Assembly: GCA_041494445.1 (NCBI GenBank)
Contig: JBGQAU010000004.1
Location: 278-64,277, forward strand
DNA length: 64,000 nucleotides
Source: Acidobacteriota bacterium
GTDB lineage: Bacteria > Acidobacteriota > Polarisedimenticolia > Polarisedimenticolales > JAIQFR01
Direction: 5' to 3'
The notes beneath the pieces were generated by a model. It ran no database searches, was not told where the DNA came from, and saw nothing but the letters and a program-made list of their open reading frames with translations. The translations under genes and the position numbers were made by a program. The stretch's first letter is position 1, and each line of letters opens with the position of its first letter. Shown here piece after piece: positions 23,737 to 40,335 of this stretch.

Positions 23737-23941
23737 AATGCCCATCCTTGTCGTCATCCGAATCGAATCCGGGAGGAGGCTGCCGACAAACAATTTCCTT
23801 CACGGCGCGCGCCTCGACGCTTCCTCCCCAGACCGGTAGAACCGTAGCGGTTGACCGAGGAAGCGTCAAGGGCCCGGCTCGGCTTGTTTCCGCCGGATCG
23901 TCGGCGGAGCTCCGGCCCCGTACGGCTGCCGGGCGCCGGCT

Positions 23942-24367: not shown

Positions 24368-24371
24368 GGCG

Positions 24372-24716
24372 TCACTTGCCTCCCATCACGACGAGGAATC
24401 CGCTGCTCATCCATTCCTCGCCACGGCGGATGTCGAAGGAGATACTCCCGTCCGCGGCGGGCCGGCTGATCGAAACGTCGAGAACGTCGCCAGGCGCGAC
24501 CGGGCGCCGCAGGCGGAGGAAAGGAACGGCCGAGATCGAAGCCTCACGGCCCGTCACCGCGGCGAGCGCCTGCGCGGCGACCGCCAAATGCGCGATCGCC
24601 GGCAGCACCGGTCGGCCTGGGAAATGCCCGTCGAAGACCGGGTGCTCTCCGGGGATCGAGATTCGGCAGCTCCACCCGTCCGGCGTCGTCGAGCACGCAA
24701 GAAGCGGAAAATTCAT
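24372..24716 (-). CDS. FabZ/FabA-like hotdog dehydratase
   Basis: It has an HFPGRPVLPAI motif and is 114 aa from MNFPLLAC at 24716. Confidence 0.65.
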   Translation of the reverse strand: MNFPLLACSTTPDGWSCRISIPGEHPVFDGHFPGRPVLPAIAHLAVAAQALAAVTGREASISAVPFLRLRRPVAPGDVLDVSISRPAADGSISFDIRRGEEWMSSGFLVVMGGK

Positions 24717-24901
24717 CCGCGCGCCGCCTCCCGGCAAACTACGCCGTGTTCGCCCTCTCGCCGCGGGCCTTCGCGAATCGCCAGACCAAGAACAGGTCGC
24801 GGAGAGCCCAAGAACCGCAGTGATTCTGCCACGGCTCCATGAAATGGTCACCGTCGATCGAACCGCGCCTTCCGCCGATGAGCGATCCGCCGACGGGTCC
24901 G

Positions 24902-24921
24902 GGTAGGGTTTTACCCCATGG
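24902..24921 (+). promoter_or_regulatory. Conserved inverted-repeat motif, site 1 (GGTAGGGTTTTACCCCATGG)
   Basis: It lies 47 nt upstream of the PLC-like gene ATG. The 22-mer 24901-24922 is identical to site 2 in inverted orientation. Confidence 0.6.
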
Positions 24922-24968
24922 ATTGCGTTCGGCTCGCCGCGTACCTTGCAAGAGAAAAGGAGTGAAAC

Positions 24969-26246
24969 ATGCCTGGGACTGTCCGCGCGGCGGCAGTTCT
25001 TCTCGTCGTGCTCATGGGCAGCGGCGGTGCGTTCGCGTACTCCGTTCTGACGCACGAGGAAATCGTAGACCTGGTCTGGGCCGACTCGTTTCAACCCCTC
25101 CTGCTCAAGCGATATCCGGGATTGTCGGAAGACCAGATCAAGGAGGCGCACGCCTACGCGTACGGAGGCGCCGTCATCCAGGATCTCGGCTACTACCCAT
25201 TCGGTAGCAGAGGATTCAGCGACTTGCTGCATTACGTCCGCAGCGGAGACTTCGTTCGCGAGCTGTTGCTCGAAAGCCAGGACGTCAACGAGTACGCCTT
25301 CGCGCTGGGCTCACTGTCGCACTATGCGTCGGACATCGCCGGTCACCCGGCGGTCAACCATGCCGTCGCGATCGCGTATCCGAAGCTACGAGCGGAGTTT
25401 GGCGAGTCCGTTCGGTACGCCCAGAACAAGAAGGCGCATTTGAAAACGGAGTTCGGGTTCGACACGGTGCAGGTCGCGAAGAACCGTTATGCGTCGAAGC
25501 AGTACCACGACTTCATCGGGTTCCGAGTGGCCAAGTCCCTGCTGGAGCGGGTCTTCCCGGTTGTGTACGGCATGGAGTTGAAAGAGGTGCTTACCCACGA
25601 GGATCTGGCAGTCGGTTCGTATCGTTTCGCTGTCAGCCGTCTCATTCCGCAAATGACCCAAGTCGCGCTGCGAGCCCACAAGAAGGATCTGATGCGCGAA
25701 ACCCCGAACTTCGCGAAACAGAAGTTCCTGTTCCGTCTTTCGCGCTCTGATTATGAGAAGGAGTGGGGAAAGGACTACGTGAAGCCGGGCTTGGGCACGC
25801 GCTTCTTGTCAGCACTCCTGCGATTCGTGCCGAAAATCGGTCCCTTCAAGAAATTGAGGTTCAACAGCCCGACCGCGGAAACAGAAGACCTGTACATCAA
25901 GAGCATCAATGCAACCGTCGATCAGTACCGGGCCTTTCTCGAGGCAGTGCGCACGGACACACTGGTGCTGCCCAACTACGATCTGGATAGCGGCCACGCG
26001 ACCAAGGCAGCGGAATACTCCCTCACGGACGACGCGTACGCACAGTTGCTGGCCCAGTTAGCGGAACGGAAATTCGATCTGACGTCGCCGGAGCTGCGCG
26101 ACGACATCCTGAAGTTCTACTCCGACCTCTCTGCTCCGATCGAGACGAAAAAGGACCGGGTTCGCTGGCAGGGCATGATGACGTCGCTGGACCTGTTGAT
26201 TTGCGTGGAGCCGGCGCCGACCGTGGCGGGCAGCGCTGCACGGTGA
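24969..26246 (+). CDS. Secreted zinc-dependent phospholipase C-like protein
   Basis: It has a signal peptide (AAVLLVVLMGSGGAFA) and an N-terminal YSVLTHEEI...DLGYYPFG...HYASDIAGHP histidine pattern. The family call is from memory. Confidence 0.5.
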   Translation: MPGTVRAAAVLLVVLMGSGGAFAYSVLTHEEIVDLVWADSFQPLLLKRYPGLSEDQIKEAHAYAYGGAVIQDLGYYPFGSRGFSDLLHYVRSGDFVRELLLESQDVNEYAFALGSLSHYASDIAGHPAVNHAVAIAYPKLRAEFGESVRYAQNKKAHLKTEFGFDTVQVAKNRYASKQYHDFIGFRVAKSLLERVFPVVYGMELKEVLTHEDLAVGSYRFAVSRLIPQMTQVALRAHKKDLMRETPNFAKQKFLFRLSRSDYEKEWGKDYVKPGLGTRFLSALLRFVPKIGPFKKLRFNSPTAETEDLYIKSINATVDQYRAFLEAVRTDTLVLPNYDLDSGHATKAAEYSLTDDAYAQLLAQLAERKFDLTSPELRDDILKFYSDLSAPIETKKDRVRWQGMMTSLDLLICVEPAPTVAGSAAR

Positions 26247-26599
26247 TCACCCATGCGCTTCCGCTGCAGGCCGTTCCTTTCCTGAGCGATTGGAACAACA
26301 CGGTAGGTCGTTCGGTCGTCCCGCGCGCGACTCTCGAAATTCGGAATAGCCTGTGAACCTCGTCATCGTCGGCCGGAACTCGCGTGAACACCATGGGGTG
26401 CTCGCGCCGGGCGGCGGTCCGGCCACCGGGATTCCCTGGGCCTCGATGCTGGCTGAAGACCCTACGGTCGCCCTAGAGTGGCTCCGGACGTCACTGGAGG
26501 CCGGAGAAGCCGATCTCGAGCTCGACACGCCGGCTGCGGAGGTTGGCTTGAACTCGAGAATTGTCGTACTCTAACGTGTCCATCAGAGGGTGCCCTCCA

Positions 26600-28345
26600 A
26601 TGAAGAACAAGGGTCCCAAATCCACTTTCCCCGCCCGTCGTCTGCCCAAGTGTCCCACGGGCATCCAGGGTCTCGACGAGATCACGAATGGCGGATTGCC
26701 GCGTGGGCGGCCCACGCTGGTGTGCGGCGGCGCGGGCTGCGGCAAGACGCTGTTCGCAGCGGAATTCCTCGTGCGCGGCGCGGTGCAGTTCGGCGAGCCG
26801 GGCGTTTTCATGTCCTTCGAGGAGACGGAAGCCGAGTTGAAGGGCAACGTCGCGTTGCTCGGATTCGATTTGGCGGGCCTGGTTCGTCGCAAGAAAATGC
26901 TCCTCGACCACGTTTACATCGAGCGCAGTGAAATCCAGGAGACCGGCGAGTATGACCTCGAAGGGTTGTTCGTTCGGCTGAATCACGCGATCGGTTCCAT
27001 CGGCGCCAAGCGCGTGGTGCTGGACACGCTCGAAGCGCTGTTCGCCGGCCTGCCCAACGAAGCCATCTTGCGCGCCGAGTTGCGCCGGCTGTTTCGCTGG
27101 CTCAAGAACAAGGGCGTGACGGCGGTCATCACGGCCGAGCGCGGTCACGAACACCTGACGCGCCACGGGCTGGAGGAATACGTATCCGACTGCGTCATCG
27201 TGCTCGACCATCGGATCAATGAGCAGATTGCCACGCGGCATCTGCGGGTGGTGAAATATCGCGGCTCGCCGCATGGCACCAACGAATATCCCTTCCTCAT
27301 CGGTGACGACGGCATCAGCGTGTTGCCCATCACGTCGCTGGGGTTGAATCACGCGGCGTCAAGCAAACGGATTTCCACCGGCATCCCGCGGCTCGACGCG
27401 ATGTTGGGCGGTCGGGGCTTTTTTCGCGGCAGCAGCATTCTGCTCACAGGCACGCCCGGCACCGGCAAGACCAGCGCCGCCGCATTCTTTGCCCAAGCCG
27501 CCGCCCGGCGCGGTGAGCGCGCGCTCTACTTCGCGTTCGAGGAGTCACCCAGCCAGATCATGCGCAACATGCAGTCCATCGATTTGCGCCTTGAACCTTG
27601 GATAAGGCGCGACTTGCTGCGGTTTCACTCGGCGCGGCCGACGCTCTACGGCCTAGAAATGCACCTGGCGATCATGTTCAAGGAGATCTTCACGTTCAAG
27701 CCCGCCGTCGTCGTCGTGGACCCGATGACCAGCCTGCTGGTCGCGGGCAGTGAATCCGAGACCAAGGCGATGGTGACGCGGCTGATCGATTTCTTGAAGA
27801 GTCAACAAATCACTTCGCTCTTCACCAGTCTCACGCACGCCGGCAACCCGCTGCAGCAAAGTGAAATCGCCATCTCCTCGCTCATGGATTCCTGGCTGCT
27901 GTTGCAGGACATCGAGGGCAACGGTGAGCGCAATCGCGTTCTCTACGTGCTCAAAGCGCGCGGCATGGCGCACTCGAACCAGAGCCGCGAGTTCCTGATT
28001 TCGGACCGTGGCATTGACCTGGTGGACGCTTACGTCGGTCCAGGCGGCGTGTTGACAGGCGCGGCCCGCGCGGCGCAAACCGCCCGCGACAAAGCCGGAG
28101 CGCTCGCCAGCCAACAGGAGACCGCCCGCCGGCAGCGCGATTTGGAGCGCAAACGCGCCGCCCTCGAGCGTCAAATCGCCGCGCTACGCTCCGAGTATGA
28201 CGCCGAGGAAGAGGAACTCCGGCGCTTGGACGAAGAGGTCGCTAGGCGAACCCGCGCGGTGACCACCGAGCGGACGGAATTGGCCCGCTTGCGCCATGCG
28301 GATGCCACGGTGGCGTCCCGCGCGCGGGGCAAACCCAGACCCTAG
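26600..28345 (+). CDS. kaiC: KaiC homolog with long C-terminal coiled-coil extension
   Basis: It has two RecA-like halves with Walker A motifs GGAGCGKT and GTPGTGKTS. ISSL sits at the position of the cyanobacterial phosphosite pair. A heptad-like, charged tail of about 100 aa (RRQRDLERKRAALERQIAALRSEYDAEEEELRRLDEEV...) follows. An alternative TTG start lies at 26561. Confidence 0.85.
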   Translation: MKNKGPKSTFPARRLPKCPTGIQGLDEITNGGLPRGRPTLVCGGAGCGKTLFAAEFLVRGAVQFGEPGVFMSFEETEAELKGNVALLGFDLAGLVRRKKMLLDHVYIERSEIQETGEYDLEGLFVRLNHAIGSIGAKRVVLDTLEALFAGLPNEAILRAELRRLFRWLKNKGVTAVITAERGHEHLTRHGLEEYVSDCVIVLDHRINEQIATRHLRVVKYRGSPHGTNEYPFLIGDDGISVLPITSLGLNHAASSKRISTGIPRLDAMLGGRGFFRGSSILLTGTPGTGKTSAAAFFAQAAARRGERALYFAFEESPSQIMRNMQSIDLRLEPWIRRDLLRFHSARPTLYGLEMHLAIMFKEIFTFKPAVVVVDPMTSLLVAGSESETKAMVTRLIDFLKSQQITSLFTSLTHAGNPLQQSEIAISSLMDSWLLLQDIEGNGERNRVLYVLKARGMAHSNQSREFLISDRGIDLVDAYVGPGGVLTGAARAAQTARDKAGALASQQETARRQRDLERKRAALERQIAALRSEYDAEEEELRRLDEEVARRTRAVTTERTELARLRHADATVASRARGKPRP

Positions 28346-28357
28346 GAGAGAATATTG

Positions 28358-28687
28358 ATGAAAACCAAAACGGGGAAACGACGCAAATCCGACTCCACTG
28401 GCGTGCCAACCAATACCTGGAAATTGCGTCTTTACGTAGCCGGGCAGACGCCCAGATCGATGACGGCTTTCGCGAACCTGAAAGAGATCTGCGAAAACCA
28501 CCTCAAGAACCGTTATAGCATCGAGGTCATCGACCTGATGAAGCAGCCGCATCTTTCCAAAGGCGACCAAATCCTGGCCATTCCCACGCTCGTGCGCAAG
28601 CTGCCACCGCCCGTGCGGAAGATCATTGGCGACCTGTCCGACACCGAGCGCGTGCTCGTCGGATTGGATTTGCGCGCCACCGAATGA
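28358..28687 (+). CDS. kaiB: KaiB homolog 1
   Basis: [12 protein letters not shown]...[34 protein letters not shown] is close to canonical KaiB. Confidence 0.85.
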
Positions 28688-28702
28688 CCGAAGCGAGAGT
28701 CG

Positions 28703-29056
28703 GTGAGAAGAACCAATACGCACCGCGCGACCAAGGCCTTTGAAAAGGCCCTGGCCACCCGACCCACGGGCAACTACGTCCTGCGACTGTACGTGGCGGG
28801 GGCCACCGACAGATCGCGCCGGGCCGTCCTGCGCGCCCGTCAGCTGTGCGAAACCGAACTGAAAGGCACTTGCGAGCTGGAAGTGATCGACGTCTATCAG
28901 CAGCCCATCCTGGCGCGCGACGGCCAGATCGTGGCGACCCCGACACTCGTCAAGGAATTCCCGCCGCCGGTGCGCCGGCTCATTGGCGACCTGGCGAACA
29001 CCACCCGGCTTTTTGTCGGGTTGGATTTGGACACGAAAGGTAAGGCCAGGCGGTGA
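28703..29056 (+). CDS. kaiB: KaiB homolog 2 (tandem paralog)
   Basis: LRLYVAGATDRS...IVATPTLVKEFPPPVRRLIGDLANTTRLFVGLDL matches KaiB. Its stop overlaps the GTG start of the downstream kinase. Confidence 0.8.
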   Translation: MRRTNTHRATKAFEKALATRPTGNYVLRLYVAGATDRSRRAVLRARQLCETELKGTCELEVIDVYQQPILARDGQIVATPTLVKEFPPPVRRLIGDLANTTRLFVGLDLDTKGKARR

Positions 29057-30264
29057 AAAGTGCCCGCCGCCAACATTCCTCTCGCCCCGCGCCCTCCCGC
29101 GAGCTCGCCGAGCTCCGCGTGCGCCTCGCCGAAGCGGAGGAAACGCTCCAGGCCATTCGCAACGGCGAGGTGGATGCGGTGGTGGTCACGGGCAAGCAGG
29201 GCGCCCAAGTGTTCACGCTGGAAGGCGCCGAGCGCGCCTACCGCGTGCTCATCGAATCCATGAACGAAGGGGCGCTGACCCTTACGGATGACAAGACGAT
29301 TCTTTACGCCAACCAGCGCTTCGCAAGAATGGTCAAGTGCCCGCTGGAGCGGGTAATCGGCAGATCCTTTGATCGCTTTATCTCCGCCGAAGACCTGGAA
29401 ACGCTCCAACCGCTCCTGAAACGGGTCGCCAAATCCGGCTCCAAGTTCCAAGTGCCACTAAGCGCCAGCGATGGTTCGCAAATGCCGGCGCAAGTCTCCA
29501 TTCGTCGGGTGCCAAAGAGGGATTCCAACCGCGCGACCTTCGCCGTGGTGGTGACGGACATGACGGAGGCCCGGCGCAACGAGGAGAAGCTGCGGGCGTT
29601 GTCCCAGCGCCTCGTGCAAGCGCAGGAAGCCGAGCGCGGGCGAGTGGCCCGCGAGTTGCACGACCACATTACGCAGCTTCTCTGCGCCATCCTTTTTCGC
29701 TGCCAGGCGCTGGCGGACAAACTGTCGGCGCGCGATGAGCCATCGAAGGGAGAGGCGATGAGACTGCGCGAGATGCTCGGCGAGGCTGCCGAAGAAGTGG
29801 AGCGCATCTCGCGTAATCTGCGGCCCAGCGTTTTGGAGGAGCTGGGTCTCCTCGACGCCCTGCGCGCCACCGGCGTGGAGTTCGCGGATCGGACGGGCGT
29901 GTCCGTCGAGATGTCTTGCGTGAAGTCGACCGCGCGGCTGCCCGCCGACATCGAGCTGACGCTCTACCGCGTCCTCCAGGAAGCCTTGGGAAACGTCGAG
30001 AGGCACGCACGCGCTCGCCACGTTATCGCGCGCCTAAGCCTGCAGGGCGCCTTCGTTCAGTTGGTGATCCATGACGACGGGATCGGCTTCGACCCGGATC
30101 ATCACCCGGCCAGACGAAAAGCAAGGGGCGGCCTTGGTCTCCTCAGCATGCGCGAGCGAGCCACGTATGTGGGCGGCACCCTGAAGGTCAAGTCCATTCG
30201 CCGCGTCGGCACGGAAATCGAGGTGCGCATTCCCCTGCCGCTGAGTGCCACGGCGGCTGACTGA
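29053..30264 (+). CDS. PAS-domain sensor histidine kinase (HisKA_3 / NarX-type)
   Basis: It has an N-terminal coiled segment plus a PAS domain (ILYANQRFARMV...), the H-box ERGRVARELHDHITQ and a C-terminal HATPase_c domain. Confidence 0.8.
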   Translation: MKSARRQHSSRPAPSRELAELRVRLAEAEETLQAIRNGEVDAVVVTGKQGAQVFTLEGAERAYRVLIESMNEGALTLTDDKTILYANQRFARMVKCPLERVIGRSFDRFISAEDLETLQPLLKRVAKSGSKFQVPLSASDGSQMPAQVSIRRVPKRDSNRATFAVVVTDMTEARRNEEKLRALSQRLVQAQEAERGRVARELHDHITQLLCAILFRCQALADKLSARDEPSKGEAMRLREMLGEAAEEVERISRNLRPSVLEELGLLDALRATGVEFADRTGVSVEMSCVKSTARLPADIELTLYRVLQEALGNVERHARARHVIARLSLQGAFVQLVIHDDGIGFDPDHHPARRKARGGLGLLSMRERATYVGGTLKVKSIRRVGTEIEVRIPLPLSATAAD

Positions 30265-30443
30265 ACGGATTTTGAAACAAGTCACTGTCGTGCCGGCTGA
30301 AGACCACCATGTCGTCCGAGAGGGTCTTCGGTCATTATTGGAACACGATCCCGATATTGAAGTGGTCAAGGGATAGGGAATCTCGTCGCCGCGACCCCGG
30401 GCTGGGTCGATCTCGGCGGGACGGGGAAAGGGTGGGGGAACGG

Positions 30444-31124
30444 CTAATCGATCGTGAACCGGACACGGCTCTCGACGATCCCCGCGTTGATGGCGTAGCG
30501 GGTGAGGCCCGCGGTGTCGTGGATGTCCAGCTTGCTCATTAGATGCTGCCGGTGCTTCTCGACGGTCTTGATGCTGATGCCGAGTTCGTCCGCCGCCTGC
30601 TTGTTGGCCATTCCTTCGGCAATCAGCTGGAGTACCTCCACCTCGCGCGAGGTCAGGCCGGCGGCTCCCTTCTTGATTCTTCCATTCGCTCCATGGGACG
30701 AATTCTGCTGAAGATCGCCGAGCCGCCTGGCGATGGATGGGCTGAAGAACCTGTTCCCGTTGTGAACTTCCCGAATCGCCTTGGCGAGAACGAGGGCGGA
30801 CGTCTGTTTGATCAGGTACCCCGCCGCGCCGAGTTCGATCACTTGCTCGACGTACGCGTCATCGCCATGCGCGGACAAAACGATGATCTTGGTGGCCGGC
30901 AGTTCTTTGAGAATCTGCTTGGTGGCTTCCAGGCCGTTGAGGAGCGGCATCGCGAGGTCCATGACGACCACTGCCGGCAGAAGCTTCTTGGTCAGCAACA
31001 CGGCTTGGCGGCCGTTCTGCGCTTCGCCGACCACCTCGATGTCGTCTTCCATCTCCAGTAACGTCCGCAGCCCCTCTCGGACTATCGTGTGGTCGTCGGC
31101 CAGCAGCACGCTGATTGGTTTCAT
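30444..31124 (-). CDS. NarL/FixJ-family response regulator (REC + LuxR-type HTH)
   Basis: LLADDH...MDLAMP marks the receiver domain. LTSREVEVLQLIAEGMANKQAADELGISIKTVEKHRQHLMSKL marks the HTH. Confidence 0.9.
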   Translation of the reverse strand: MKPISVLLADDHTIVREGLRTLLEMEDDIEVVGEAQNGRQAVLLTKKLLPAVVVMDLAMPLLNGLEATKQILKELPATKIIVLSAHGDDAYVEQVIELGAAGYLIKQTSALVLAKAIREVHNGNRFFSPSIARRLGDLQQNSSHGANGRIKKGAAGLTSREVEVLQLIAEGMANKQAADELGISIKTVEKHRQHLMSKLDIHDTAGLTRYAINAGIVESRVRFTID

Positions 31125-32296
31125 TTCATGGACTCGACTTGAGCGTTCGGCGATCCCTTACGACCGTTATTGTATGGAATCTTCGCGCGAATGGTGGTGC
31201 CTTTGCCCGGTGCGGATTCGACGGTAAAGCTGCCGCCGACCATCTCGACCCGCTCTCGCATGCCGATCAACCCCAATCGTCCGACCCTCTTGGCGACGAG
31301 GAAGCGCTCCACCCGAAAGGACTTGCCGTTGTCGTGTATTTCCATCTGAACGACGTCCTGGACCTTCCGAATGCCCACCGTCACCTTGCTGGCTCCTGCA
31401 TGCTTTTCGACATTGGTGAATGCCTCCTGGGCTACGCGATAGAGCACCGTTCGCTTGTCGCTGGTCAGGTGTTCAATCGAGGCGGAGGCCGTGAAGTCAA
31501 CGGGGATGTGCGTCCGCCTCGTAAAGCCCTTCATGTAGGAATGGAGAGCGGGAATGAGCCCCAGGTCGTCCAGAAGCGGCGGACGTAATTCCCGCGCGAA
31601 CCGATGCACCGTGTTCATCGACCTTTCCACGAGCCGTTGAGTGCTGGCGATCTTTCCTTTGAGGCCGGTGTTGTTAACCGTGGCCTCCTTCGTCAACGTC
31701 GCCAGTCTGACATTGATGGCCGTCAAGATCTGGCCGATTTCATCGTGAAGCTCGCGGCTGATCTTCTTTCGCTCTTCCTCCTGCGAGGACAGAAGCTCGT
31801 GGGTAAGTCGCCTCAAGTGTTCCTGCATGTGACGGGATTTCTCCAGCAACTCCCCGTAGTGTCGCTCGCTTTTCTTGAGGGCGCCCTGCACGGCCTCGCG
31901 GCGGCGGATTTCGCGTCTCAGCTGCCGGAGCGCCACGGTCAGCTCGGCGGTCCGCTGGCGCAAGGTCACGTTCAGTCGATTGAAACGGCTGCTGCTCTTC
32001 AGCGCGGAGCGATGGCCGTTCCCGACCGGTGTGAGTGCCTTGGCAAAAAAGCTCGCCGCGTGCTTGAGCATCTCATCGCCGCTTCTGGATGTGGGGCCCG
32101 GAGGCAGCAGTCTGATCACAGCCTGTTCGTGGATGCTGATCAGGTCCAACGTGTCCAGTCCCAGTGCCAGGGCTTCGCGTCCGAGGTTCTCAGCCGGCCG
32201 CAAGCTCGTCCCCGGCTTCAGCGCCAGTTGCTTTCGCAACGCCACCACGTATCGTCGCGACAAACCGCTCGCGCTGCCTTTGGAGCCGGAACTCAT
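31121..32296 (-). CDS. Histidine kinase (HisKA_3) with RsbU-N-like N-terminal domain
   Basis: It has the H-box ERKKISRELHDEIGQ and an HATPase_c domain. It shares an ATGA overlap with the response regulator gene. The start is chosen at MSSGSKGS (32296). Confidence 0.75.
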   Translation of the reverse strand: MSSGSKGSASGLSRRYVVALRKQLALKPGTSLRPAENLGREALALGLDTLDLISIHEQAVIRLLPPGPTSRSGDEMLKHAASFFAKALTPVGNGHRSALKSSSRFNRLNVTLRQRTAELTVALRQLRREIRRREAVQGALKKSERHYGELLEKSRHMQEHLRRLTHELLSSQEEERKKISRELHDEIGQILTAINVRLATLTKEATVNNTGLKGKIASTQRLVERSMNTVHRFARELRPPLLDDLGLIPALHSYMKGFTRRTHIPVDFTASASIEHLTSDKRTVLYRVAQEAFTNVEKHAGASKVTVGIRKVQDVVQMEIHDNGKSFRVERFLVAKRVGRLGLIGMRERVEMVGGSFTVESAPGKGTTIRAKIPYNNGRKGSPNAQVESMK

Positions 32297-32373
32297 GCGC
32301 GACCTCTCGCCGGGCGTGTCGCCGGGCGACCCACGACAACCACGGTCATTGTCAGACGGTCGCCTCGATTTGT

Positions 32374-32393
32374 CCATGGGGTAAAACCCTACC
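32374..32393 (-). promoter_or_regulatory. Conserved motif, site 2 (reads GGTAGGGTTTTACCCCATGG on the minus strand)
   Basis: It lies 77 nt upstream of the HK-RR operon start and is divergent from site 3. Confidence 0.6.
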
Positions 32394-32473
32394 CGCGGCG
32401 CTGGCGCGCCTGCCTGGTGGCGCCTTATTCTTGCGCGAGGATCCGTGCGCGGGGAGCTCGTCCGACGGTCCAC

Positions 32474-32493
32474 AGTAGGGTTTCACCCCATCG
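32474..32493 (+). promoter_or_regulatory. Conserved motif, site 3 (AGTAGGGTTTCACCCCATCG)
   Basis: It lies 57 nt upstream of the lmo0937-like miniprotein ATG. Confidence 0.55.
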
Positions 32494-32550
32494 CGAGGCA
32501 CCGGCGCGTGGCGTAGCGTATACCTCGAACCGGGGAGAAAGGAGACGACC

Positions 32551-32703
32551 ATGTTGTGGACGATTGCGGTAGTTCTGGGGATTCTGTGGCTACTGGGGTT
32601 CGTGTCCAGTTACACGATGGGAGGGTTCATCCACATCCTGCTGGTGCTCGCGATCATCGTGGTGCTGATCAGGGTCATCCAAGGACGACGAGTGCTGTCG
32701 TAG
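32551..32703 (+). CDS. lmo0937-family small membrane protein (50 aa), absent from the ORF track
   Basis: AAAGGAG RBS precedes the ATG. The product is MLWTIAVVLGILWLLGFVSSYTMGGFIHILLVLAIIVVLIRVIQGRRVLS*, which matches my recollection of this miniprotein family. Confidence 0.7.
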   Translation: MLWTIAVVLGILWLLGFVSSYTMGGFIHILLVLAIIVVLIRVIQGRRVLS

Positions 32704-32802
32704 ACAGCCGTCGGCGGAGCCTGGAGCACTCGAGGGTTCGATGAGACCTAAGACGCTATTCGCGCTCATATCGATCATGTCACGTGATCAGGAGGTACGG
32801 TC

Positions 32803-34173
32803 TTGAGATACATCCGAGTAGCTGTTCTCGTGATCGCCGCCGTGGCTCTCGCGGTCGTTCTCGCGCAGCCGGTGCGCGCCGAGGTATCGTTCGACTTCGC
32901 TTATTCCAATCTGAGCCAACACGGTTCCTGGCTCGTCTCGGCGCAGTACGGGCACGTCTGGCAGCCGAGGGAATACAACCGGGAGTGGAACCCCTACTAC
33001 GACGGTCACTGGGTCTACACCGACATGGGTTGGACGTGGGTCTCGGACTACGAGTGGGGAGCCATTCCCTATCACTACGGGACGTGGGTCGCCGATCCCG
33101 ACGACGGATGGGTATGGATTCCGGGGAGCGTCTGGGCACCGTCCTGGGTCGTCTTCCGTACCGGTTCCGATTACATCGGCTGGGCCCCCGTGCCTCCGGG
33201 CTTCTCCGTGGGCATGTCGATCGACTTCGGAGGGCCGTCGAGCTTCGTGTTCGTCTCTTCCCGCGACTTCCTCGCGCCGAGACTTCGCACGTCGATCATC
33301 CCCATGAATCGCACGAGCGTGTTCATGAACAACACGACCGTGGTGAACAACATCGTGGTTCAGAACAACGTCGTGGTCAATCGCGGCCCCGACTACAGGA
33401 TCGTGGAGAGAGCCACCGGTCACGCCATCCGTGAGCAACGCATCGAGAGCGTCGCCAGAGTGGCGCCGTTCGCGAACGTCAGCCGCGCTCAACTGGCCGT
33501 CGCCCCCGAAAGGGCAAGACAGGGCCTCCGGGTCGCCGAGCCGGTCCCCGCAAACCGTCCCCTCCCGGTCGCCGACAAGGGCGGGAACCGCCAGCGGAAC
33601 ACCTCGCCGGCCGACGCGTCGAGGCCCCTGAACGGGCGTGAAGCGGCCCGGCCGAACACTCAGGAACGGGCGACCGCGCCCGCGGCGGCGATGCCGAGCA
33701 GAGCCGCCGACGCCGCGCAGAAGGCGAACGCCAAGGCGAACGCGGATCGGAGTGCACAGGCGCAGCGGGACGCCAGCGTGAAGGCGGATCAGAGTGCAAG
33801 GACGCAGGCGAACGCCAAGGCGAACGCGGACCGGAGTGCACAGGCGCAGCGTAACGCCAGCGTGAAGGCGGATCAGAGTGCAAGGACGCAGGCGAACTCC
33901 AAGGCGAACGCGGATCGGAGTGCACAGGCGCAGCGTAACGCCAACGTGAAGGCGGCGCAGAGCGCGAACGCACAGGCGAACGCCAAGGCGAAGGCGGATC
34001 AGACCGCAAGGGCACAGGCGAACCCCAAGGCGAACGCGCAGCAGAGCGCAAAGGCACAGGCGAACGCCAAGGCGAAGGCGGACGCGAAGGCCAAGAAGGA
34101 CAACCCGGAAAAGAAGGATCAGAGCTCCGACAAGCCCCCCACCCCGGAGGCGAAGGAAGGATCCCATCAGTAG
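32803..34173 (+). CDS. Secreted W/Y-rich protein (DUF6600-like) with repetitive Ala/Gln/Lys-rich tail
   Basis: It has a TTG start after AGGAGG and a signal peptide. The N-terminal domain is rich in W-x-P / G-x-W patterns. The C-terminus contains in-frame 28-aa tandem repeats. Confidence 0.6.
   Translation: MRYIRVAVLVIAAVALAVVLAQPVRAEVSFDFAYSNLSQHGSWLVSAQYGHVWQPREYNREWNPYYDGHWVYTDMGWTWVSDYEWGAIPYHYGTWVADPDDGWVWIPGSVWAPSWVVFRTGSDYIGWAPVPPGFSVGMSIDFGGPSSFVFVSSRDFLAPRLRTSIIPMNRTSVFMNNTTVVNNIVVQNNVVVNRGPDYRIVERATGHAIREQRIESVARVAPFANVSRAQLAVAPERARQGLRVAEPVPANRPLPVADKGGNRQRNTSPADASRPLNGREAARPNTQERATAPAAAMPSRAADAAQKANAKANADRSAQAQRDASVKADQSARTQANAKANADRSAQAQRNASVKADQSARTQANSKANADRSAQAQRNANVKAAQSANAQANAKAKADQTARAQANPKANAQQSAKAQANAKAKADAKAKKDNPEKKDQSSDKPPTPEAKEGSHQ
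33724..34100 (+). repeat. 84-nt in-frame tandem repeat (about 2.5 good copies, then degenerate copies)
   Basis: Units at 33724-33807 and 33808-33891 are nearly identical, and the unit at 33892-33975 diverges in its second half. Each unit encodes ANAKANADRSAQAQR[DN]ASVKADQSARTQ. Confidence 0.85.
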
Positions 34174-34308
34174 ATAGCCGGCGGTGCTCGTCATCGGGCT
34201 CGTCGCGACGCCCGTGACGGGCTCGACGTCGTGCCTCAGGTTGCCCCAGCGGTAACGGGCACCGACGCAGAGGGTTTTCGCCTTCGGCTAACAAACTGGA
34301 GGATTTCG

Positions 34309-34542
34309 ATGAGACTGAAGACGGTAATCGCCGGCATCTTGATCGTTCTGGGCATCGTGGCGTTGGCCTACCAGGGCATCACGTACACCAGCATGGGAAG
34401 AGTTATCGATCTCGGCCCCATGCACGTGACGAGCGAGGAAACCCACCATATCCCGCTGCCGCCGATCCTCGGAGTGATCGCGCTGGTCGGCGGGATCGTC
34501 CTGCTGGTCGTGGATCGGAGGCGTCTCGACCCCGCGGCGTAG
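34309..34542 (+). CDS. Small two-TM membrane protein, hypothetical
   Basis: CTGGAGG RBS precedes the start. The product is MRLKTVIAGILIVLGIVALAYQG...ILGVIALVGGIVLLVV. Confidence 0.5.
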   Translation: MRLKTVIAGILIVLGIVALAYQGITYTSMGRVIDLGPMHVTSEETHHIPLPPILGVIALVGGIVLLVVDRRRLDPAA

Positions 34543-34652
34543 TGATGATGGGCAGACGAGCCCGAAGTTGGAGGAAGGCGTCTCGGGAGTGGTCCTCACG
34601 TAAGAGTGCAGAAGGAAGCTTGCTTTCCCCGCGAGCACGTCCACTCACCCAT

Positions 34653-34672
34653 GGTAGGGTTCTGCCCCATAG
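34653..34672 (+). promoter_or_regulatory. Conserved motif, site 4 (GGTAGGGTTCTGCCCCATAG)
   Basis: It lies immediately upstream of the SYLF gene fragment. Confidence 0.5.
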
Positions 34673-34708
34673 ATGAGGGTCGGCGCGCGGCATACCCTAT
34701 GCCGGTGT

Positions 34709-34894
34709 CTCGACGGCTCCGTCGTGAAACCGGACCAGGACGCCAACGCACGCCTGTATCGCGAGAAGACCTCCGGGAAGGAGATCCTGGTGGACTCAAA
34801 GCTCGCCGTCCCGGCTTCAGCGCGGCCCCTCGTGGATTCGATCCGCCGACACATGGCGGCCGCCGTCGCCAAGGAGAAAGCAGAGAAGAGGTGA
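34709..34894 (+). pseudogene. C-terminal fragment of a SYLF-domain gene (paralog of 39479..40195)
   Basis: About 190 nt are roughly 90% identical by eye to 40010-40201. The fragment encodes LDGSVVKPDQDANARLYREKTSGKEILVDSKLAVPASARPLVDSIRRHMAAAVAKEKAEKR*, and the N-terminal two thirds of the gene are missing. Confidence 0.7.
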
Positions 34895-35131
34895 GCGGGG
34901 TCCGCTGACCTCTCGCCTGTCGGCTCGCCTCCGGGACGTCCGGGAGCGAGCCGCAGTTTTTTCGCCGACGCTCCTCCCCCAGAGCCCAAAACCGATTCTC
35001 GGAAGGGGAAAGAGGAGCCATCATGAAGACGACCGAGGTTCGGCAGGATCTCGCATGGCTTGCCTGGAGCCTTCCCGGTCTTGGTGTCCGCCAGGTGGGA
35101 CACCATGGATTCATGACCCGAACGAGTGGGC

Positions 35132-35151
35132 GGTAGGGTTACACCCCATGG
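35132..35151 (+). promoter_or_regulatory. Conserved motif, site 5 (GGTAGGGTTACACCCCATGG)
   Basis: It lies 74 nt upstream of the frameshifted lmo0937-like ORF, and PBP1A follows in the same direction. Confidence 0.55.
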
Positions 35152-35225
35152 AGGCGAGGAACGTCTCGACGTAGTGTCCGAGGTGAAAGGCGGTGCCTCG
35201 TGGGCTTCGCGAGAGGGAGAACGTC

Positions 35226-35407
35226 ATGTTGTGGACCGTGGCGGTGATCCTGTTGGTCTTGTGGCTTCTGGGTCTGAGGAGCCATCCATGAATCCCAGGA
35301 TCGTCGTAGAAATTGTTCTCATCGCCCTGGGCGTCGTGGCGCGTGGCCCGAACAAGCGGCGTCTTCTCCCCGACCCCGAAGCAGCCAGGTCTCTGCACCG
35401 TCCGTGA
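35226..35407 (+). pseudogene. Frameshifted lmo0937-family miniprotein gene
   Basis: Frame A gives MLWTVAVILLVLWLLGLRSHP*. Another frame continues SMNPRIVVEIVLIALGVVARGPNKRR, which is colinear with TMGGFIHILLVLAIIVVLIRVIQGRR of the intact copy. Confidence 0.5.
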
Positions 35408-35416
35408 AGTGTCGCC

Positions 35417-37936
35417 ATGTCCACGCAGATGCCGTTCCAGGGTCCTCCAGTTGATATCGCCGAAGAGCGCCGCCGGGGCCGGATCGGCGTGCAGGGCGGA
35501 GGAAGCCCCGGTAGACCCCGCGTCCAACCTCCCGAGGTCCCGCGCGCACCAGACTTGCGGCCCGACTCGTCCCGGCGGATCCTGCGCCACGGCGGCGATC
35601 GATTGCGCCCGGGACGGGAAGCTCCGATCGGCGCGGCCGTCTCGCGCCCGCAGTTCAGCGGTACCCTCGTGGCCGGTCGCCGGCGCTTCGCATGGCGGCG
35701 CCGCGCGGTGTGCCTCGTGGCCCCGCCTCTGGCGCTGCTCTTGCTCCTGGCGGCGGTCCTCGCCCACCGCGTCTACTTCGACCGGAGCGGCCTCCCCAAC
35801 CTCGAGTCCTTCCTCCGTTTCGAGCCCCCCAGGATCGGTGAGATCTACGACGACCGGGGCAAGGTCCTGATCCAGCTGGCGCGGGAGTACCGCCGGGTCG
35901 TCTCCTACTACGAGGTGCCTCCCATCCTGCGCGAGGCCATCCTGGCGGCCGAGGACAAGAACTTCTTCTCCCACTCCGGCGTGGATTACCGCGCGCTGCC
36001 ACGGGTGGTCCAGAAAACAGCCATGCATTCGCTGGCCGCATGGTGGAGGGGCGATGGGTTCCGGGTGCTCTTCCCCCAGGGTGGCTCGACGCTCACGCAA
36101 CAGCTCGTCCGCAGCTACTTCCTCCAGGATCTGACGATCCGTGAGAACAGCGGTTTCCTCATCGGCCACGGACTGACGACGCGAGTCCTCTCAGCGGTCC
36201 TGGGTGTTCGAGTCACGAACAAACTCTTTCGGAAGATGGAGGAGGTCCGCCTGTCGTTCTGGCTCGAGGAGGAGATGCGCCGGCGCTGCGGATCGCTCGA
36301 CCAGGCCAAGCGCGAGATCTTCGCCCGCTACGCCAGCTTCATCTACCTGGGCAACGGTCGCTACGGATTCGCCGCCGCCTCGGAGTATTACTTCGGCAAG
36401 CCCCTGTCGAGCTACACCCCGGAGGACGCGGGGAAGGCGGCGCTGCTGGCGGGGATCAGCAAGTCGCCCAGGTCTTACGCTCCGGTGCCCGGCAATGCGC
36501 GGCCCCTGCGCCGCCGCAACGGGATCCTGGCCCTCATGGCGGGCAACGGATGCATCTCCGAGGGCCTCGCGGCGCGCTGCCAGGCCGAGCCGATCCGCGT
36601 GGCGGAGCGCAGCCTGGTCAGGACCGACGCTCCCGGCGCTATTGCGAACGTCCTCGAGGAGCTGAAGCAGCACGGCGGGAGCCGTTTCGGGATCGAGGAC
36701 CTGCTTCAGGGGCGGATCTCGGTCCGCTCCACGGTGGACGGCCGGGTGCAGACCGTCGTGAACGAAGCCCTGGAGAACGGCCTGGCCCTCTACGAGAAGC
36801 GGCACCGCAAATCGAAGGGGTTGATCCAGGGATCGGTGGTGGTGCTGCGCAACGCGGACGCGGCGATCCTCGCCGAAGCGGGCGGGCGACAGGTCTTCAA
36901 GGAACGCTCCACGCGGTACTCCGACCTGAACCGCGTCACGGGCTCGTTACGGCAGCCGGGCTCCGCGTGGAAGCCGATCGTGTACCTGGCCGCATTCCGC
37001 CAGGGGCTCGACCTCGACACGGCAGTGCCCGACGAGCCCATCGAGGTCCCCCTGGGCGCCGATCGCGGTGTGAAGTGGATCGCGAACTACGACAACCAGT
37101 TCAAGGGCCTGATCCCGGTTCGCCAGGCCCTGGCCGAGTCCCGCAACGCCGTGGCCGTGTGGATCGCCCGCGAGATCGGCGTGGCCGAGGTGAACCGGAC
37201 CGCCCGGCAGCTGGGCATCCGCACTCCGCTGCAGCAGTACATCAGCACGGCGCTGGGTGCGTCGGAGGTGCGGCTGCTTGAGCTGGCGGGCGCCTATCGC
37301 GCCATGGCTTCAGGGGTCCTGCCGGAGCCCCACGTCATCGCCCGAGTAACCGACGCCTCCGGTGGTGTCGTGCTCTACGAGGCGCCCCGGACCGGGCCGG
37401 ACATCGGCTCGGACGGGCCGAGCGCCGCCGAGCTGAGCCTGATCCAGGAGGGGCTGCGCGGGGTGGTCCGCCTGCCGGAAGGCACGGCCCACACCCTCGA
37501 CAGCCTCGACTTCCCGATCCCGGTGATGGGCAAGACCGGGACGACGAGCGACTTCCGCGACGCGCTGTTCGTCGGATCCACGTACGGGCGGCAGGGGATC
37601 ACGGTGGCGGTCCGCATCGGCTTCGACGACAACCGCGCGCTGGGCGAGAAGGAGACCGGGTCGCGCGCAGCGCTGCCGATCTTCCGCGAGATCATGCTCC
37701 GCCTTTACAAGGACCAGCTGGTGGGGCCCCTGCCGCAGTTTCCCTGCGAAATCGAGGCGCGGATCGACGAGTACCTGGCGACGCAGGCCGTGCGGGAGGC
37801 TTGGCGCGACGAGCGTCCACCGGCCCTCGAAGACGGACTGACCTTCCTGCCCCCGAAGATCTCGGCTTCCCGGACCCTCCTGCACCGCTCCACCTGCGAC
37901 TCTTCGGAGACGGCTGCAGTCGCGTCGGTGCGCTGA
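35417..37936 (+). CDS. Class A penicillin-binding protein (PBP1A: glycosyltransferase + transpeptidase)
   Basis: EDKNFFSHSGVD and GGSTLTQQ mark the GT51 domain. GSAWKP (SxxK), SRN and KTGTT mark the transpeptidase domain. The start is uncertain. Confidence 0.85.
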   Translation: MSTQMPFQGPPVDIAEERRRGRIGVQGGGSPGRPRVQPPEVPRAPDLRPDSSRRILRHGGDRLRPGREAPIGAAVSRPQFSGTLVAGRRRFAWRRRAVCLVAPPLALLLLLAAVLAHRVYFDRSGLPNLESFLRFEPPRIGEIYDDRGKVLIQLAREYRRVVSYYEVPPILREAILAAEDKNFFSHSGVDYRALPRVVQKTAMHSLAAWWRGDGFRVLFPQGGSTLTQQLVRSYFLQDLTIRENSGFLIGHGLTTRVLSAVLGVRVTNKLFRKMEEVRLSFWLEEEMRRRCGSLDQAKREIFARYASFIYLGNGRYGFAAASEYYFGKPLSSYTPEDAGKAALLAGISKSPRSYAPVPGNARPLRRRNGILALMAGNGCISEGLAARCQAEPIRVAERSLVRTDAPGAIANVLEELKQHGGSRFGIEDLLQGRISVRSTVDGRVQTVVNEALENGLALYEKRHRKSKGLIQGSVVVLRNADAAILAEAGGRQVFKERSTRYSDLNRVTGSLRQPGSAWKPIVYLAAFRQGLDLDTAVPDEPIEVPLGADRGVKWIANYDNQFKGLIPVRQALAESRNAVAVWIAREIGVAEVNRTARQLGIRTPLQQYISTALGASEVRLLELAGAYRAMASGVLPEPHVIARVTDASGGVVLYEAPRTGPDIGSDGPSAAELSLIQEGLRGVVRLPEGTAHTLDSLDFPIPVMGKTGTTSDFRDALFVGSTYGRQGITVAVRIGFDDNRALGEKETGSRAALPIFREIMLRLYKDQLVGPLPQFPCEIEARIDEYLATQAVREAWRDERPPALEDGLTFLPPKISASRTLLHRSTCDSSETAAVASVR

Positions 37937-38022
37937 GCCGCCGTGAGGATGTTCCTGCCGATCGATTCAGAGACCGTGGGGTCGCCGGCGCTACGTTCGC
38001 ACCCGCACTCTCCGATCCCGTC

Positions 38023-38042
38023 GGTAGGGTTACACCCCATAT
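38023..38042 (+). promoter_or_regulatory. Conserved motif, site 6 (GGTAGGGTTACACCCCATAT)
   Basis: It lies 341 nt upstream of the DUF3494 lipoprotein gene. Confidence 0.45.
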
Positions 38043-38383
38043 ACGGATCGACGCCGGCGACAAACAATGATGACGTTCGTCTGCAACTGAAACCGTCGTC
38101 GAGGTGACCCGTGAGTTCTGGATCCGCGCATAAGTTGTCCGGGTGGTCCCAGGGCTCCCCAGCGGTCCCGCCAGAGCCCGTGGCGCACGAGCCACGAGCG
38201 AGCTTCCGGCCGGTCGAGAGACCCGGCCGCCGAGCGGTTGCAGCCGGTCTCGACAGGCTGGATTTGGCCGAGAGTCACGAGCAAACGCGCAGGAGTGCCC
38301 CGCGTAGGCGTGAACGCCTGCTTTTCGAACAACATTACGAATAACTCCGCGCCGAGTGCGTGGAGCCTGAGGGGAAAACGAAG

Positions 38384-39112
38384 ATGCGAAAACACAACGG
38401 TCTGGGCGTGTCAGCCACGGTCATCCCATTGCTGCTGACCGGTCTTCTCGCAGCATGCGGCGGTTCTTCCGGCGGCGGCGTTCTGAACCCGCCGTTTGGC
38501 CACGGTGGCGGGCAACCCGTGAGCCTCGGCACGGCCTCCGCTTTCGGCGTCCTGGCCGGCCAATCGGTCACGAACAGCGGAGCGACGACGATCACTGGGG
38601 ATCTCGGAATCTGGCCGGGCAACACGCTGACGGGAGCTCCATCGGTAACCGGGGCGACCCACCTCGGCGATGCGACCGCACAGAGTGCTCAGTCCGCCTT
38701 GACGGCTGCGTACAACGACGCCGCCGGACGAGCCGCAGGGAGCACGATCGCGGGCGATCTCGGTGGCCGGACCCTGGCCCCTGGCGTGTACAAGTCCACG
38801 TCAACGCTCGAGATTACCTCGGCGGACGTCACGCTCAATGCCGGGGGCAATTCGAGCGCGGTATTCGTCTTCCAGATCGCCTCCTCGCTCACGGTGGGCG
38901 TCGGTCGCCGAGTCATCCTGAGCGGCGGCGCACAGCCTTCCCAGATAACCTGGCAGGTCGGTAGCTCCGCGACGCTCGGAACGAATTCCAGTGTCTCGGG
39001 GAATATTCTCGCTTTGACAACGGTCTCGATGGGTACCGGCGCAACGCTGGACGGACGAGCGATGGCGCGGAACGGCTCGGTGACGCTCCTGGCCAATACG
39101 ATCACCCCGTGA
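38384..39112 (+). CDS. DUF3494 (ice-binding-protein-like) lipoprotein
   Basis: It has a lipobox LLAACGG. SAFGVLAGQSVTNSGATTITGDLGIWPG... and the repetitive beta-solenoid-like T/S/G-rich pattern are typical of the ice-binding family. Confidence 0.65.
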   Translation: MRKHNGLGVSATVIPLLLTGLLAACGGSSGGGVLNPPFGHGGGQPVSLGTASAFGVLAGQSVTNSGATTITGDLGIWPGNTLTGAPSVTGATHLGDATAQSAQSALTAAYNDAAGRAAGSTIAGDLGGRTLAPGVYKSTSTLEITSADVTLNAGGNSSAVFVFQIASSLTVGVGRRVILSGGAQPSQITWQVGSSATLGTNSSVSGNILALTTVSMGTGATLDGRAMARNGSVTLLANTITP

Positions 39113-39295
39113 CGCGAAAGGCGTGCGCCGAGCGCTCACGCGAGGCGTTGGCGAGTTCCGATGGGCGCTCCTCACCGGCGCCGTCGCACTCGCCCTCGTG
39201 ACGCCGCGCGCGGCGCCTCGGGGCGGGACTGGCTCACCTCCCGTGGCGGCGACGAGCGACGGGGACAGCGCTGGCGGAAAACCTGGAGGTCCCTC

Positions 39296-39315
39296 GGTAG
39301 GGTTTTGCCCCATGG
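39296..39315 (+). promoter_or_regulatory. Conserved motif, site 7 (GGTAGGGTTTTGCCCCATGG)
   Basis: It lies 163 nt upstream of the SYLF gene ATG. Confidence 0.55.
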
Positions 39316-39478
39316 ATATGGGCCCACCCACGGAATAGCATCGCTCTCGAGTCAGAAGACAGCTGGTTCCGGATCTCGCGCGGTCTTGCTCCCATCGCTT
39401 CCGTAATCCTTGTGCGGGCGCGGTGCGGGATCCGAGGCAAAGCACCACCAACAAGGAAGAAAGGAAAGGCACCAAGCC

Positions 39479-40195: not shown

Positions 40196-40335
40196 GCGGA
40201 GCCCGGTGCCCCCTTCGACCCAAGAAGAGCAGATGCGGCTTCCACCCGCTCTCGACCGCCACTAGATCGAGAAGCATGTTCGCAGTTCCCGGAGCGCTTC
40301 TTTCGGAGCGCTCACTTCACACGCAGGAGACTTCA

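Follow-up and report, generated by a model that had tools for sequence, protein, structure and literature searches.

What is the function of seven copies of a 20-nt imperfect inverted repeat that lie in front of genes in a 64,000-nt stretch of DNA from an Acidobacteriota bacterium (positions 278 to 64,277 of contig JBGQAU010000004.1, assembly GCA_041494445.1), and which protein reads them? This stretch, the whole of the DNA that was analysed, is called the window below, and the repeat is called the box. The initial annotation of the window had taken the box for an operator of stress-type genes and had named the adjacent LuxR-type response regulator as its possible, autoregulatory binder. The reading that we favour, and consider likely, is that the box forms the upstream half of a regulator-dependent promoter, which would be bound and activated by the NarL-type response regulator encoded at 30444-31124. 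As judged from sequence, it is plausibly the operator or promoter box of an uncharacterised NarL-family regulon with unusually wide conservation and a role in the general stress response.

The box and its distance to a -10-like hexamer

The whole window was searched with the pattern GGTAGGGTTNNNCCCCATGG, allowing up to three mismatches. Seven matches were obtained, compared with 0.11 expected from the mean of 100 shuffled sequences, none of which reached seven, and the coordinates and strands of all the sites listed in the initial annotation were reproduced. A position matrix derived from the seven sites, which is circular for their own scores, gives them 30.0-34.8 bits, with the next best position in the 64 kb at 12.8 bits. 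Neither the matrix scan nor relaxed dyad scans with gaps of 2, 3 or 4 nt found a further site in the window. The 12.8-bit match (3815-3834, GGTAGTGTTTTGCCCACAGG) was treated as a chance match because it is inside a long open reading frame (ORF) and has no -10 hexamer. The seven boxes are physically clustered in 14.4 kb of the window, with none in the other 49 kb.

Genes were placed by third-position G+C, by Pfam and by the NCBI and JGI gene calls of an identical contig that overlaps the window (JBGOYL010000019.1, assembly GCA_041479655.1). As had been claimed, all seven sites are located between called genes and each is aimed at a gene downstream. The distance from the end of the box to the start codon is 47, 77, 57, 74, 341 and 163 nt for sites 1, 2, 3, 5, 6 and 7, respectively, in agreement with the range of 47-341 nt given earlier; site 4, unlike the other six, adjoins a gene fragment. 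A GGTCC upstream of the sites, which had also been pointed out, is found at only three of the seven and at variable distance, and it is not conserved among 156 sites of other genomes. The upstream flank of those 156 sites shows a weak preference for C at the two positions directly before the box and nothing more.

A feature absent from the initial annotation is a -10-like hexamer (TAnnnT or nAnnnT) placed exactly 20 nt after the box at all seven sites of the window, where NANNNT and TANNNT occupy 2.5% and 0.14% of positions, respectively. On the forward strand, box 1 (24902-24921, GGTAGGGTTTTACCCCATGG) is followed by a 20-nt spacer and the -10-like TACCTT at 24942-24947, the whole promoter covering 24902-24947. 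The same arrangement is seen on this strand for box 3 (32474-32493, with TAGCGT at 32514-32519; promoter 32474-32519), box 4 (34653-34672, with TACCCT at 34693-34698; promoter 34653-34698), box 5 (35132-35151, with TAGTGT at 35172-35177; promoter 35132-35177), box 6 (38023-38042, with AACAAT at 38063-38068; promoter 38023-38068) and box 7 (39296-39315, with TAGCAT at 39336-39341; promoter 39296-39341). Box 2 is on the reverse strand (32393-32374, within a promoter at 32348-32393) and is a perfect match to the consensus; it is followed by a -35-like TGGACA, a 17-nt spacer and the -10 hexamer GACAAT at 32353-32348, and a generic sigma-70 scan at this site picks the same TGGACA-17-GACAAT.

The box recurs outside the window. 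One genome per species was scanned for exact matches to GGTAGGGTTNNRCCCCATRG, which gave at least 119 stretches; they were taken as loci of 8 kb each, and all figures derived from them hold among the matches listed. About 108 of these 119 belong to the Planctomycetes-Verrucomicrobia-Chlamydiae (PVC) group or to Acidobacteriota: about 80 are from Verrucomicrobiota, 10 from Lentisphaerae or Victivallales, 6 from Planctomycetota, 4 from Kiritimatiellia, 3 carry the label 'PVC group' and 5 are from Acidobacteriota. Three more are from bacteria with no further label and four are labelled Bifidobacteriaceae. The remaining four (an archaeon, Bacteroidetes, Solirubrobacterales and Limnocylindria) are apparent chance matches, all of them without a -10 hexamer. 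The four 'uncultured Bifidobacteriaceae' metagenome-assembled genomes (MAGs; loci L068, L089, L109 and L117) have typical boxes followed by stress genes of verrucomicrobial type, and their label is probably wrong. Among the matches listed, the closest relatives of window proteins are a phospholipase C of a Terriglobia MAG (84% identity) and a Ysc84 protein of an Acidobacteriota MAG (82%). Clustering of the boxes is again seen in locus L027, which has five of them within 8 kb.

The spacing to the -10 hexamer recurs along with the box, so that the phylogenetic footprinting proposed in the initial annotation as a check has come out in favour of the element. Among the 156 sites elsewhere, TANNNT is found 74 times at offset 20 and 12 times each at offsets 19 and 21, no other offset having more than 5, and ANNNT is present at offset 20 in 111 of the 156. 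When sites are sorted by their mismatches to the box, a -10 hexamer accompanies 123 of 135 sites with no mismatch, 39 of 44 with one, 15 of 17 with two and 9 of 13 with three, and 3 of 28 with four. The last three bases of the box (T-R-G) are at the same time the first three positions of a would-be -35 hexamer, 17 nt from the -10; across the sites elsewhere these -35 hexamers are poor (T-R-G-c-n-n). Read from the -10-like hexamer, the box is predicted to span about -52 to -33 relative to the start of transcription, and, being upstream of the -10 hexamer, it would not be transcribed. Such a predicted geometry is that of class II placement, in which a site centred near -42 abuts or overlaps a weak -35. 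The earlier operator idea is therefore upheld in part: a site for a regulator is supported, and yet the box is more than an operator, namely a promoter element in a fixed position with its -10 at +20.

The inverted half-sites around a 3-nt spacer described in the initial annotation were found again as the core dyad T(A/G)GGGT-N3-ACCC(C/T)A at box positions 3-17, in which five of the six hexamer positions are symmetric, and natural variants raise the symmetry further. Mismatches gather at box positions 1, 4, 9, 12, 16 and 20, and the variants A to G at position 4 and C to T at position 16 make the two half-sites more alike. In front of six kinase operons of the type described below, a perfect palindrome, ATGGGGTG-TT-CACCCCAT, stands in for the box; its distal half is moved by one base and its proximal half holds the distance to the -10 hexamer.

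The forms of the element upstream of kinase operons can be listed by locus. A perfect palindrome with a 4-nt gap (ATGGGGTGTTCACCCCAT) is present in L140, L141, L154, L158, L173 and L200, and an off-consensus box, GGTCGGGTTTYACCCCATAT, with the -10 hexamer GATGCT is located about 115 or about 770 nt upstream of the kinase in L123, L124, L125 and L146. In these loci, the boxes of kinase operons are systematically off-consensus or palindromic, and those of stress genes are of the consensus type.

The kinase-regulator operon and the reading of the box

Box 2 fronts an operon on the reverse strand that encodes a cytoplasmic histidine kinase (31121-32296, start according to NCBI and JGI) and the NarL/LuxR-type response regulator (30444-31124), which consists of a receiver and a GerE helix-turn-helix (HTH) domain by Pfam and is the candidate activator binding the box. 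The kinase is composed of an RsbU_N-like N-terminal domain, a coiled coil, HisKA_3 and HATPase_c, and has no membrane segment. RsbU_N was matched in seven of seven kinase orthologues (best E 3.3e-7), the window protein scoring 25.5 bits at the 25.5-bit cut-off. In most Verrucomicrobia, the first gene of the operon codes for a protein of about 235 residues with RsbU_N and HisKA_3 (dimerisation and phosphotransfer, DHp) domains and with no ATPase domain (for example L049:165-890, L021:274-1008, L027:2089-2787 and L060:833-1564), which may modulate or partner the kinase.

Is the association between the box and this operon a general one? In the 119 listed loci, which had been selected by the motif, the kinase ranks first with 26 loci and the regulator second with 21, followed by BON with 19, and the families enriched in these 8-kb pieces include no sigma factor, no anti-sigma factor and no further DNA-binding family. 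In the reverse direction, an alignment of seven kinases was used to retrieve 80 metagenome loci by protein similarity, 34 of which were testable, with a full-length kinase match and at least 1.4 kb of upstream sequence. A box in the same orientation, with up to three mismatches, is present upstream of the kinase in 21 of the 34, and the palindromic variant in six more, giving 27 of 34. The distance to the kinase operon is about 110 nt, or about 750-780 nt with one extra gene in between; the six palindromic variants keep the same distance to the kinase and are likewise followed by a -10-like hexamer. The association in both directions exceeds that expected for a random 8-kb piece by more than 100-fold. 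In these loci, whose flanks were unbiased by the retrieval, the polarity of the box is constant, with TAGGGT distal and CCCCAT facing the -10 hexamer.

An orthologous regulator with 60-73% identity is found directly behind the kinase in 45 of the 51 loci with enough sequence. Among 64 regulator orthologues, the mean conservation is 0.84 for the HTH, 0.77 for the receiver and 0.50 for the linker, and the recognition helix KTVEKHR is at least 95% conserved. The HTH is the most conserved part of the protein, which fits a box that hardly changes between phyla. The nearest solved structure is that of VraR (5hev, 155.9 bits, E 1.4e-44), and then those of DesR, NarL and DevR. The regulator is below every NCBIfam equivalog cut-off (the best, MctR, giving 191.5 bits versus a required 300), as are both kinases of the window, so that no curated name applies to any of them. 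The dyad, the two-way association with the operon and the conservation of the HTH thus lend support to the earlier candidate, an adjacent and possibly autoregulatory LuxR-type regulator with a dimeric HTH.

On the reading that we favour, a dimer of the phosphorylated NarL-type regulator would bind the core dyad (about -50 to -36, centred at about -43) and, from a position like that of a lux box, would bring in RNA polymerase with a sigma factor of housekeeping type (class II-type activation). Phosphate would reach the regulator from the cytoplasmic RsbU_N-HisKA_3 kinase of the same transcript; in this genome, the PAS-HisKA_3 kinase whose gene follows KaiC-KaiB-KaiB is a second probable donor. 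The regulator would switch on its own operon through box 2 and, with it, a cluster of small genes for the envelope and for protection against stress. We infer the identity of the binder, activation as opposed to repression, the starts of transcription and the inducing signals from these patterns; the poor -35 hexamers and the strict spacing are our reasons for preferring activation to repression.

Several points weigh against this reading. All positions relative to the start of transcription depend on the -10-like hexamer, induction by stress is judged from family names only, and the regulator is assigned by association, where loci of 8 kb leave room for a regulator encoded elsewhere. Two observations, moreover, are unaccounted for by it. 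The half-sites are consistently unequal (TAGGGT distal, TGGGGT proximal), which a symmetric homodimer site does not require, and 7 of the 34 orthologous kinase operons have no recognisable box. Each of the two bears on a competing explanation.

The unequal half-sites would be natural if the box were the -35-region recognition element of an alternative sigma factor, with the regulator as just one member of the regulon. Strict spacing to the -10 and constant polarity fit such an element as well, the regulon content resembles that of general stress regulons run by sigma factors, and the RsbU_N-like domain of the kinase is known from the sigma-B pathway. Nevertheless, we regard this as quite unlikely. 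The conserved block extends over 20 nt and ends where the -35 begins, although region 4 of a sigma factor reads 5-7 bp; the core is a dyad, for which symmetry-restoring variants exist and, in one form, a perfect palindrome with a shifted distal half; and the -10 is a generic TAnnnT, so that two short sigma-specific blocks are not seen. Such factors are usually autoregulated, and yet no sigma or anti-sigma gene is enriched in the 119 loci listed. The kinase operons without a box, on the other hand, are easier to understand if a different transcription factor encoded elsewhere binds the box, or if the response regulator acts as a repressor, which together we judge to be improbable. A distant regulator would be invisible in 8-kb pieces, and a site abutting the -35 hexamer could block RNA polymerase. 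However, another factor is hard to reconcile with the more than 100-fold two-way enrichment with the kinase-regulator operon. As for a repressor, promoters with -35 hexamers as poor as T-R-G-c-n-n should need help, and a spacing of 20 +/- 1 nt is typical of activators touching RNA polymerase and needless for repression.

It is also conceivable that the box has no regulatory role at all and is a mobile or structural repeat (a repetitive extragenic palindrome, REP, or a miniature inverted-repeat transposable element, MITE), a transcribed RNA element or a set of copies from segmental duplication. Part of the stretch at 34.6-39.3 kb did arise by duplication, 34709-34913 being a 90% identical copy of 40010-40214, and a rare G at box position 12 is common to sites 4 and 7. 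Even so, we give this explanation very little credence, as similarity between the copies is confined to the box and the -10 hexamer, each of them lies between genes and is directed at one, and unrelated gene families in several phyla have the same spacing to the -10. A structured RNA element was rejected on the position of the box upstream of the -10 and on Rfam, which returned no relevant match at the gathering threshold for the whole window and ten other loci or at a relaxed threshold for 24.5-40.5 kb.

Genes behind the boxes and the Kai cluster

ORFs within 3 kb downstream of 167 sites among the matches listed were clustered, cluster representatives were annotated with Pfam, and the families were recounted with one hidden Markov model (HMM) each. 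The recount mattered for the RsbU_N-type kinase, which the HMMs count at 17 sites; single-linkage clusters had given 29 by merging out-of-frame ORFs. BON proteins are found behind 23 of the 167 sites and DUF5670/lmo0937 miniproteins behind 21. Next in number after the kinase are the NarL regulator and a small two-helix membrane protein (12 sites each), a coiled-coil lipoprotein (9), ice-binding-like proteins (Ice_binding; 8), PRC-barrel and entericidin (7 each), OsmC, CsbD and DUF883 (6 each), YflT and Ysc84 (5 each), and DUF3185, DUF2934, CBM48 and a holin-like partner of DUF883 (4 each). A cluster that appears Dps-like, judged by eye from its sequence, is present in five loci among the matches listed. 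The first downstream gene starts at a median of 70-130 nt after the box. By annotation, the gene content downstream is that of a general stress regulon, and the stress-type targets proposed earlier are borne out by hallmark families (CsbD, BON, DUF883, OsmC, entericidin, PRC and YflT).

In the window itself, the seven targets named in the initial annotation have to be divided. Boxes 1, 2, 3 and 7 head intact genes, which are phospholipase C, the kinase-regulator operon, DUF5670-DUF6600 and Ysc84, respectively, and these targets stand; boxes 4, 5 and 6 are in front of remnants and do not count as independent targets. Box 1 is followed on the forward strand by a gene for a Zn-dependent phospholipase C (24969-26246, ATG at 24969; Pfam), an 84% identical orthologue of which, in the Terriglobia MAG (L064), is likewise preceded by a box. 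Behind box 3 are, on the same strand, the DUF5670/lmo0937 miniprotein (32551-32703; Pfam and NCBIfam lmo0937_fam_TM), a DUF6600 protein (32803-34173; Pfam) and a small membrane protein (34231-34542) of the family found behind 12 sites elsewhere. The DUF6600 gene contains tandem copies with an 84-nt period and 80-88% identity (33722-34083). Box 7 is followed by the intact Ysc84/SYLF gene (39479-40195, forward strand; gene calls and Pfam) and a 134-residue lipoprotein (40336-40740, forward strand). The 82% identical orthologue of Ysc84/SYLF in the Acidobacteriota MAG (L098) is box-preceded too.

The remnants are all on the forward strand. Box 4 is followed by a SYLF remnant (34709-34913), the 205-nt copy mentioned above, which corresponds to the last ~60 codons of the SYLF gene plus 19 nt. 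Its first base coincides with the predicted transcription start of box 4, and the region looks as if the rest of a duplicated SYLF gene had been deleted. A DUF5670/lmo0937 copy behind box 5 (35226-35400) is frameshifted after about 17 codons, and the gene for PBP1A that comes after it (from 35417 or 35708 to 37936, according to the gene calls) may be read from this box. Behind box 6 are a decayed copy of the 5' end of the RsbU_N-type kinase gene or of its short paralogue (38111-38344) and the gene for an ice-binding-like (DUF3494) lipoprotein (38384-39112). The stretch at 34.6-39.3 kb thus appears to be a partly decayed duplicate of the core island, in which the boxes and -10 hexamers are intact and the flanks have diverged.

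Between boxes 1 and 2, a Kai cluster is encoded on the forward strand. It comprises KaiC (26600-28345; 581 residues; Pfam; NCBIfam KaiC with 723.8 bits versus a cut-off of 408), two copies of KaiB (28358-28687 and 28703-29056; Pfam) and a PAS-HisKA_3 kinase (29053-30264; Pfam), whose gene is convergent with that of the regulator. KaiB scores 94.6 bits, below the equivalog cut-off of 110 bits. The window KaiC matches the 568-residue KaiC of PDB entries 8dba and 8fwi over residues 15-565 with 660 bits, including the C-terminal extension, compared with about 340 bits for cyanobacterial KaiC. No KaiA turned up near the cluster, although no search was aimed at it. Box 1 is possibly the promoter not only of the phospholipase C gene but also of the Kai cluster behind it.

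A link between Kai proteins and the box is found in other loci as well. The order in L149 is box, short protein, kinase, KaiC, KaiB, regulator; L126, L027, L146 and L054 have the same beginning, with KaiC directly behind the kinase, up to the end of the locus. In L103 (Lentisphaerae), a box and two small genes precede KaiC-KaiB, and the order in L087 is KaiB, PAS kinase, orthologous regulator. The KaiC proteins of these loci are 76-87% identical to that of the window (61% for L103), and the kinases 50-60%. KaiC is present in only about a tenth of the kinase loci, which makes it an accessory input and not a core part of the system; the Kai cluster and the PAS-HisKA_3 kinase are a probable second input to the same regulator.

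The G+C content of the window is 67.6%, with 62-65% at 24001-36000 and 68-70% in both flanks. This lower G+C at 24-36 kb, together with a KaiC that is more conserved than the kinase and shares 83-87% identity with verrucomicrobial copies, hints that the island may have been horizontally acquired. Upstream of box 1 and in divergent orientation, at 21799-24716, are genes for ApeI-like and ApeP-like dehydratases, an aromatic amino acid lyase and an AMP-binding enzyme (the last from the JGI calls), which may be a small cluster for a pigment or of aryl-polyene type, with no connection to the box.

Relation to known systems and significance

How does this system compare with those already known? DosR/DevR of Mycobacterium tuberculosis is an autoregulated NarL-type regulator with the HisKA_3 kinases DosS and DosT, which binds a ~20-bp GGG/CCC palindrome at the -35 and controls small stress and dormancy proteins. 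The pairing of NarL-type regulator and HisKA_3 kinase, a dyad of ~20 bp by the -35, predicted autoregulation and a regulon of small stress proteins are all seen here. However, the window regulator and DevR are distant relatives (98.6 bits, below VraR, DesR and NarL), the half-site spacing and the sequence differ from those of the Dev box, sensing would involve an RsbU_N-like or a PAS (Kai-linked) domain in place of the GAF-haem of DosS/DosT, and the system is one of the PVC group and Acidobacteriota, not of Actinobacteria. Membership of the DosR/DevR regulon was rejected on the weak match to DevR and the differing box.

The lux box, a 20-bp imperfect inverted repeat near -42.5 that is read by a dimer of a GerE/LuxR-type HTH protein and runs with its 3' end into a weak -35, has the same geometry as that predicted for the box of the window. 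In contrast, LuxR is activated by acyl-homoserine lactone and not by phosphorylation, the sequences are unrelated, and the element described here heads dozens of operons per genome. VraSR and LiaSR are positively autoregulated stress systems that likewise combine a HisKA_3 kinase with a NarL-type regulator, VraR being the closest solved structure; VraS and LiaS are membrane kinases, whereas the kinase here has no membrane segment and carries an RsbU_N-like domain, and regulon and box differ as well. With the sigma-B, sigma-S and EcfG/NepR/PhyR responses the system has in common its downstream genes (CsbD, BON/OsmY, DUF883/ElaB, OsmC, Dps-like, entericidin, PRC-barrel and YflT), and with the sigma-B pathway also the RsbU_N-like domain of the kinase, which appears to be borrowed from sigma-B partner-switching. 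Unlike those sigma-run regulons, it has a dyad upstream of a generic -10, and no sigma or anti-sigma gene is associated with it among the loci listed.

For the kinase, a possible parallel is found in Vibrio vulnificus, in which the gene for a two-component sensor protein lies downstream of rsbRST; a role of stressosomes in the regulation of two-component signalling has been proposed (PMC4260858). The RsbU_N-like domain hints at a comparable link, although no genes for RsbR, RsbS or RsbT were seen in the window or the loci. The window KaiC is of the same long type as the extended KaiC of a KaiA-less KaiBC system (PDB 8dba/8fwi), and KaiB and a PAS kinase adjoin it. In Pseudomonas, KaiC homologues are encoded beside kinases and regulators and have roles in stress resistance (bioRxiv 10.1101/2022.01.26.477890). 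The regulators there are single-domain proteins that do not bind DNA, whereas the partner here is a predicted DNA-binding NarL-type regulator with a recognisable box. Searches of the open-access full-text literature yielded no account of the motif, of a regulator of general stress in the PVC group or Acidobacteria, or of a link between KaiBC and a NarL-type regulator, and a literature search with the sequence string gave unrelated matches only.

In Proteobacteria and Gram-positive bacteria, the master regulators of the general stress response are sigma factors, and to our knowledge no such master regulator has been described for the PVC group or Acidobacteria. It is conceivable, and we put it forward tentatively as something short of an even prospect, that the box, the RsbU_N-HisKA_3 kinase and the NarL-type regulator constitute the master general stress response of Verrucomicrobiota, Lentisphaerota, Kiritimatiellota, many Planctomycetota and some Acidobacteriota, with a two-component system taking the place of a sigma factor, and that, in lineages with KaiC-KaiB inside the operon, a KaiA-less KaiBC system from outside cyanobacteria would for the first time have a defined transcriptional output, namely the box regulon. 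The PVC group and Acidobacteria are abundant in soil, freshwater and gut, and the box provides a sequence handle with which the regulon may be read from any genome or metagenome of these phyla. One candidate regulator and two candidate kinases are offered, and the activity of a box promoter could be used to report on stress. The link to KaiC-KaiB bears on the question of what KaiBC controls in non-photosynthetic bacteria, and this question becomes testable because the output regulator, predicted to bind DNA, has recognisable target sites.

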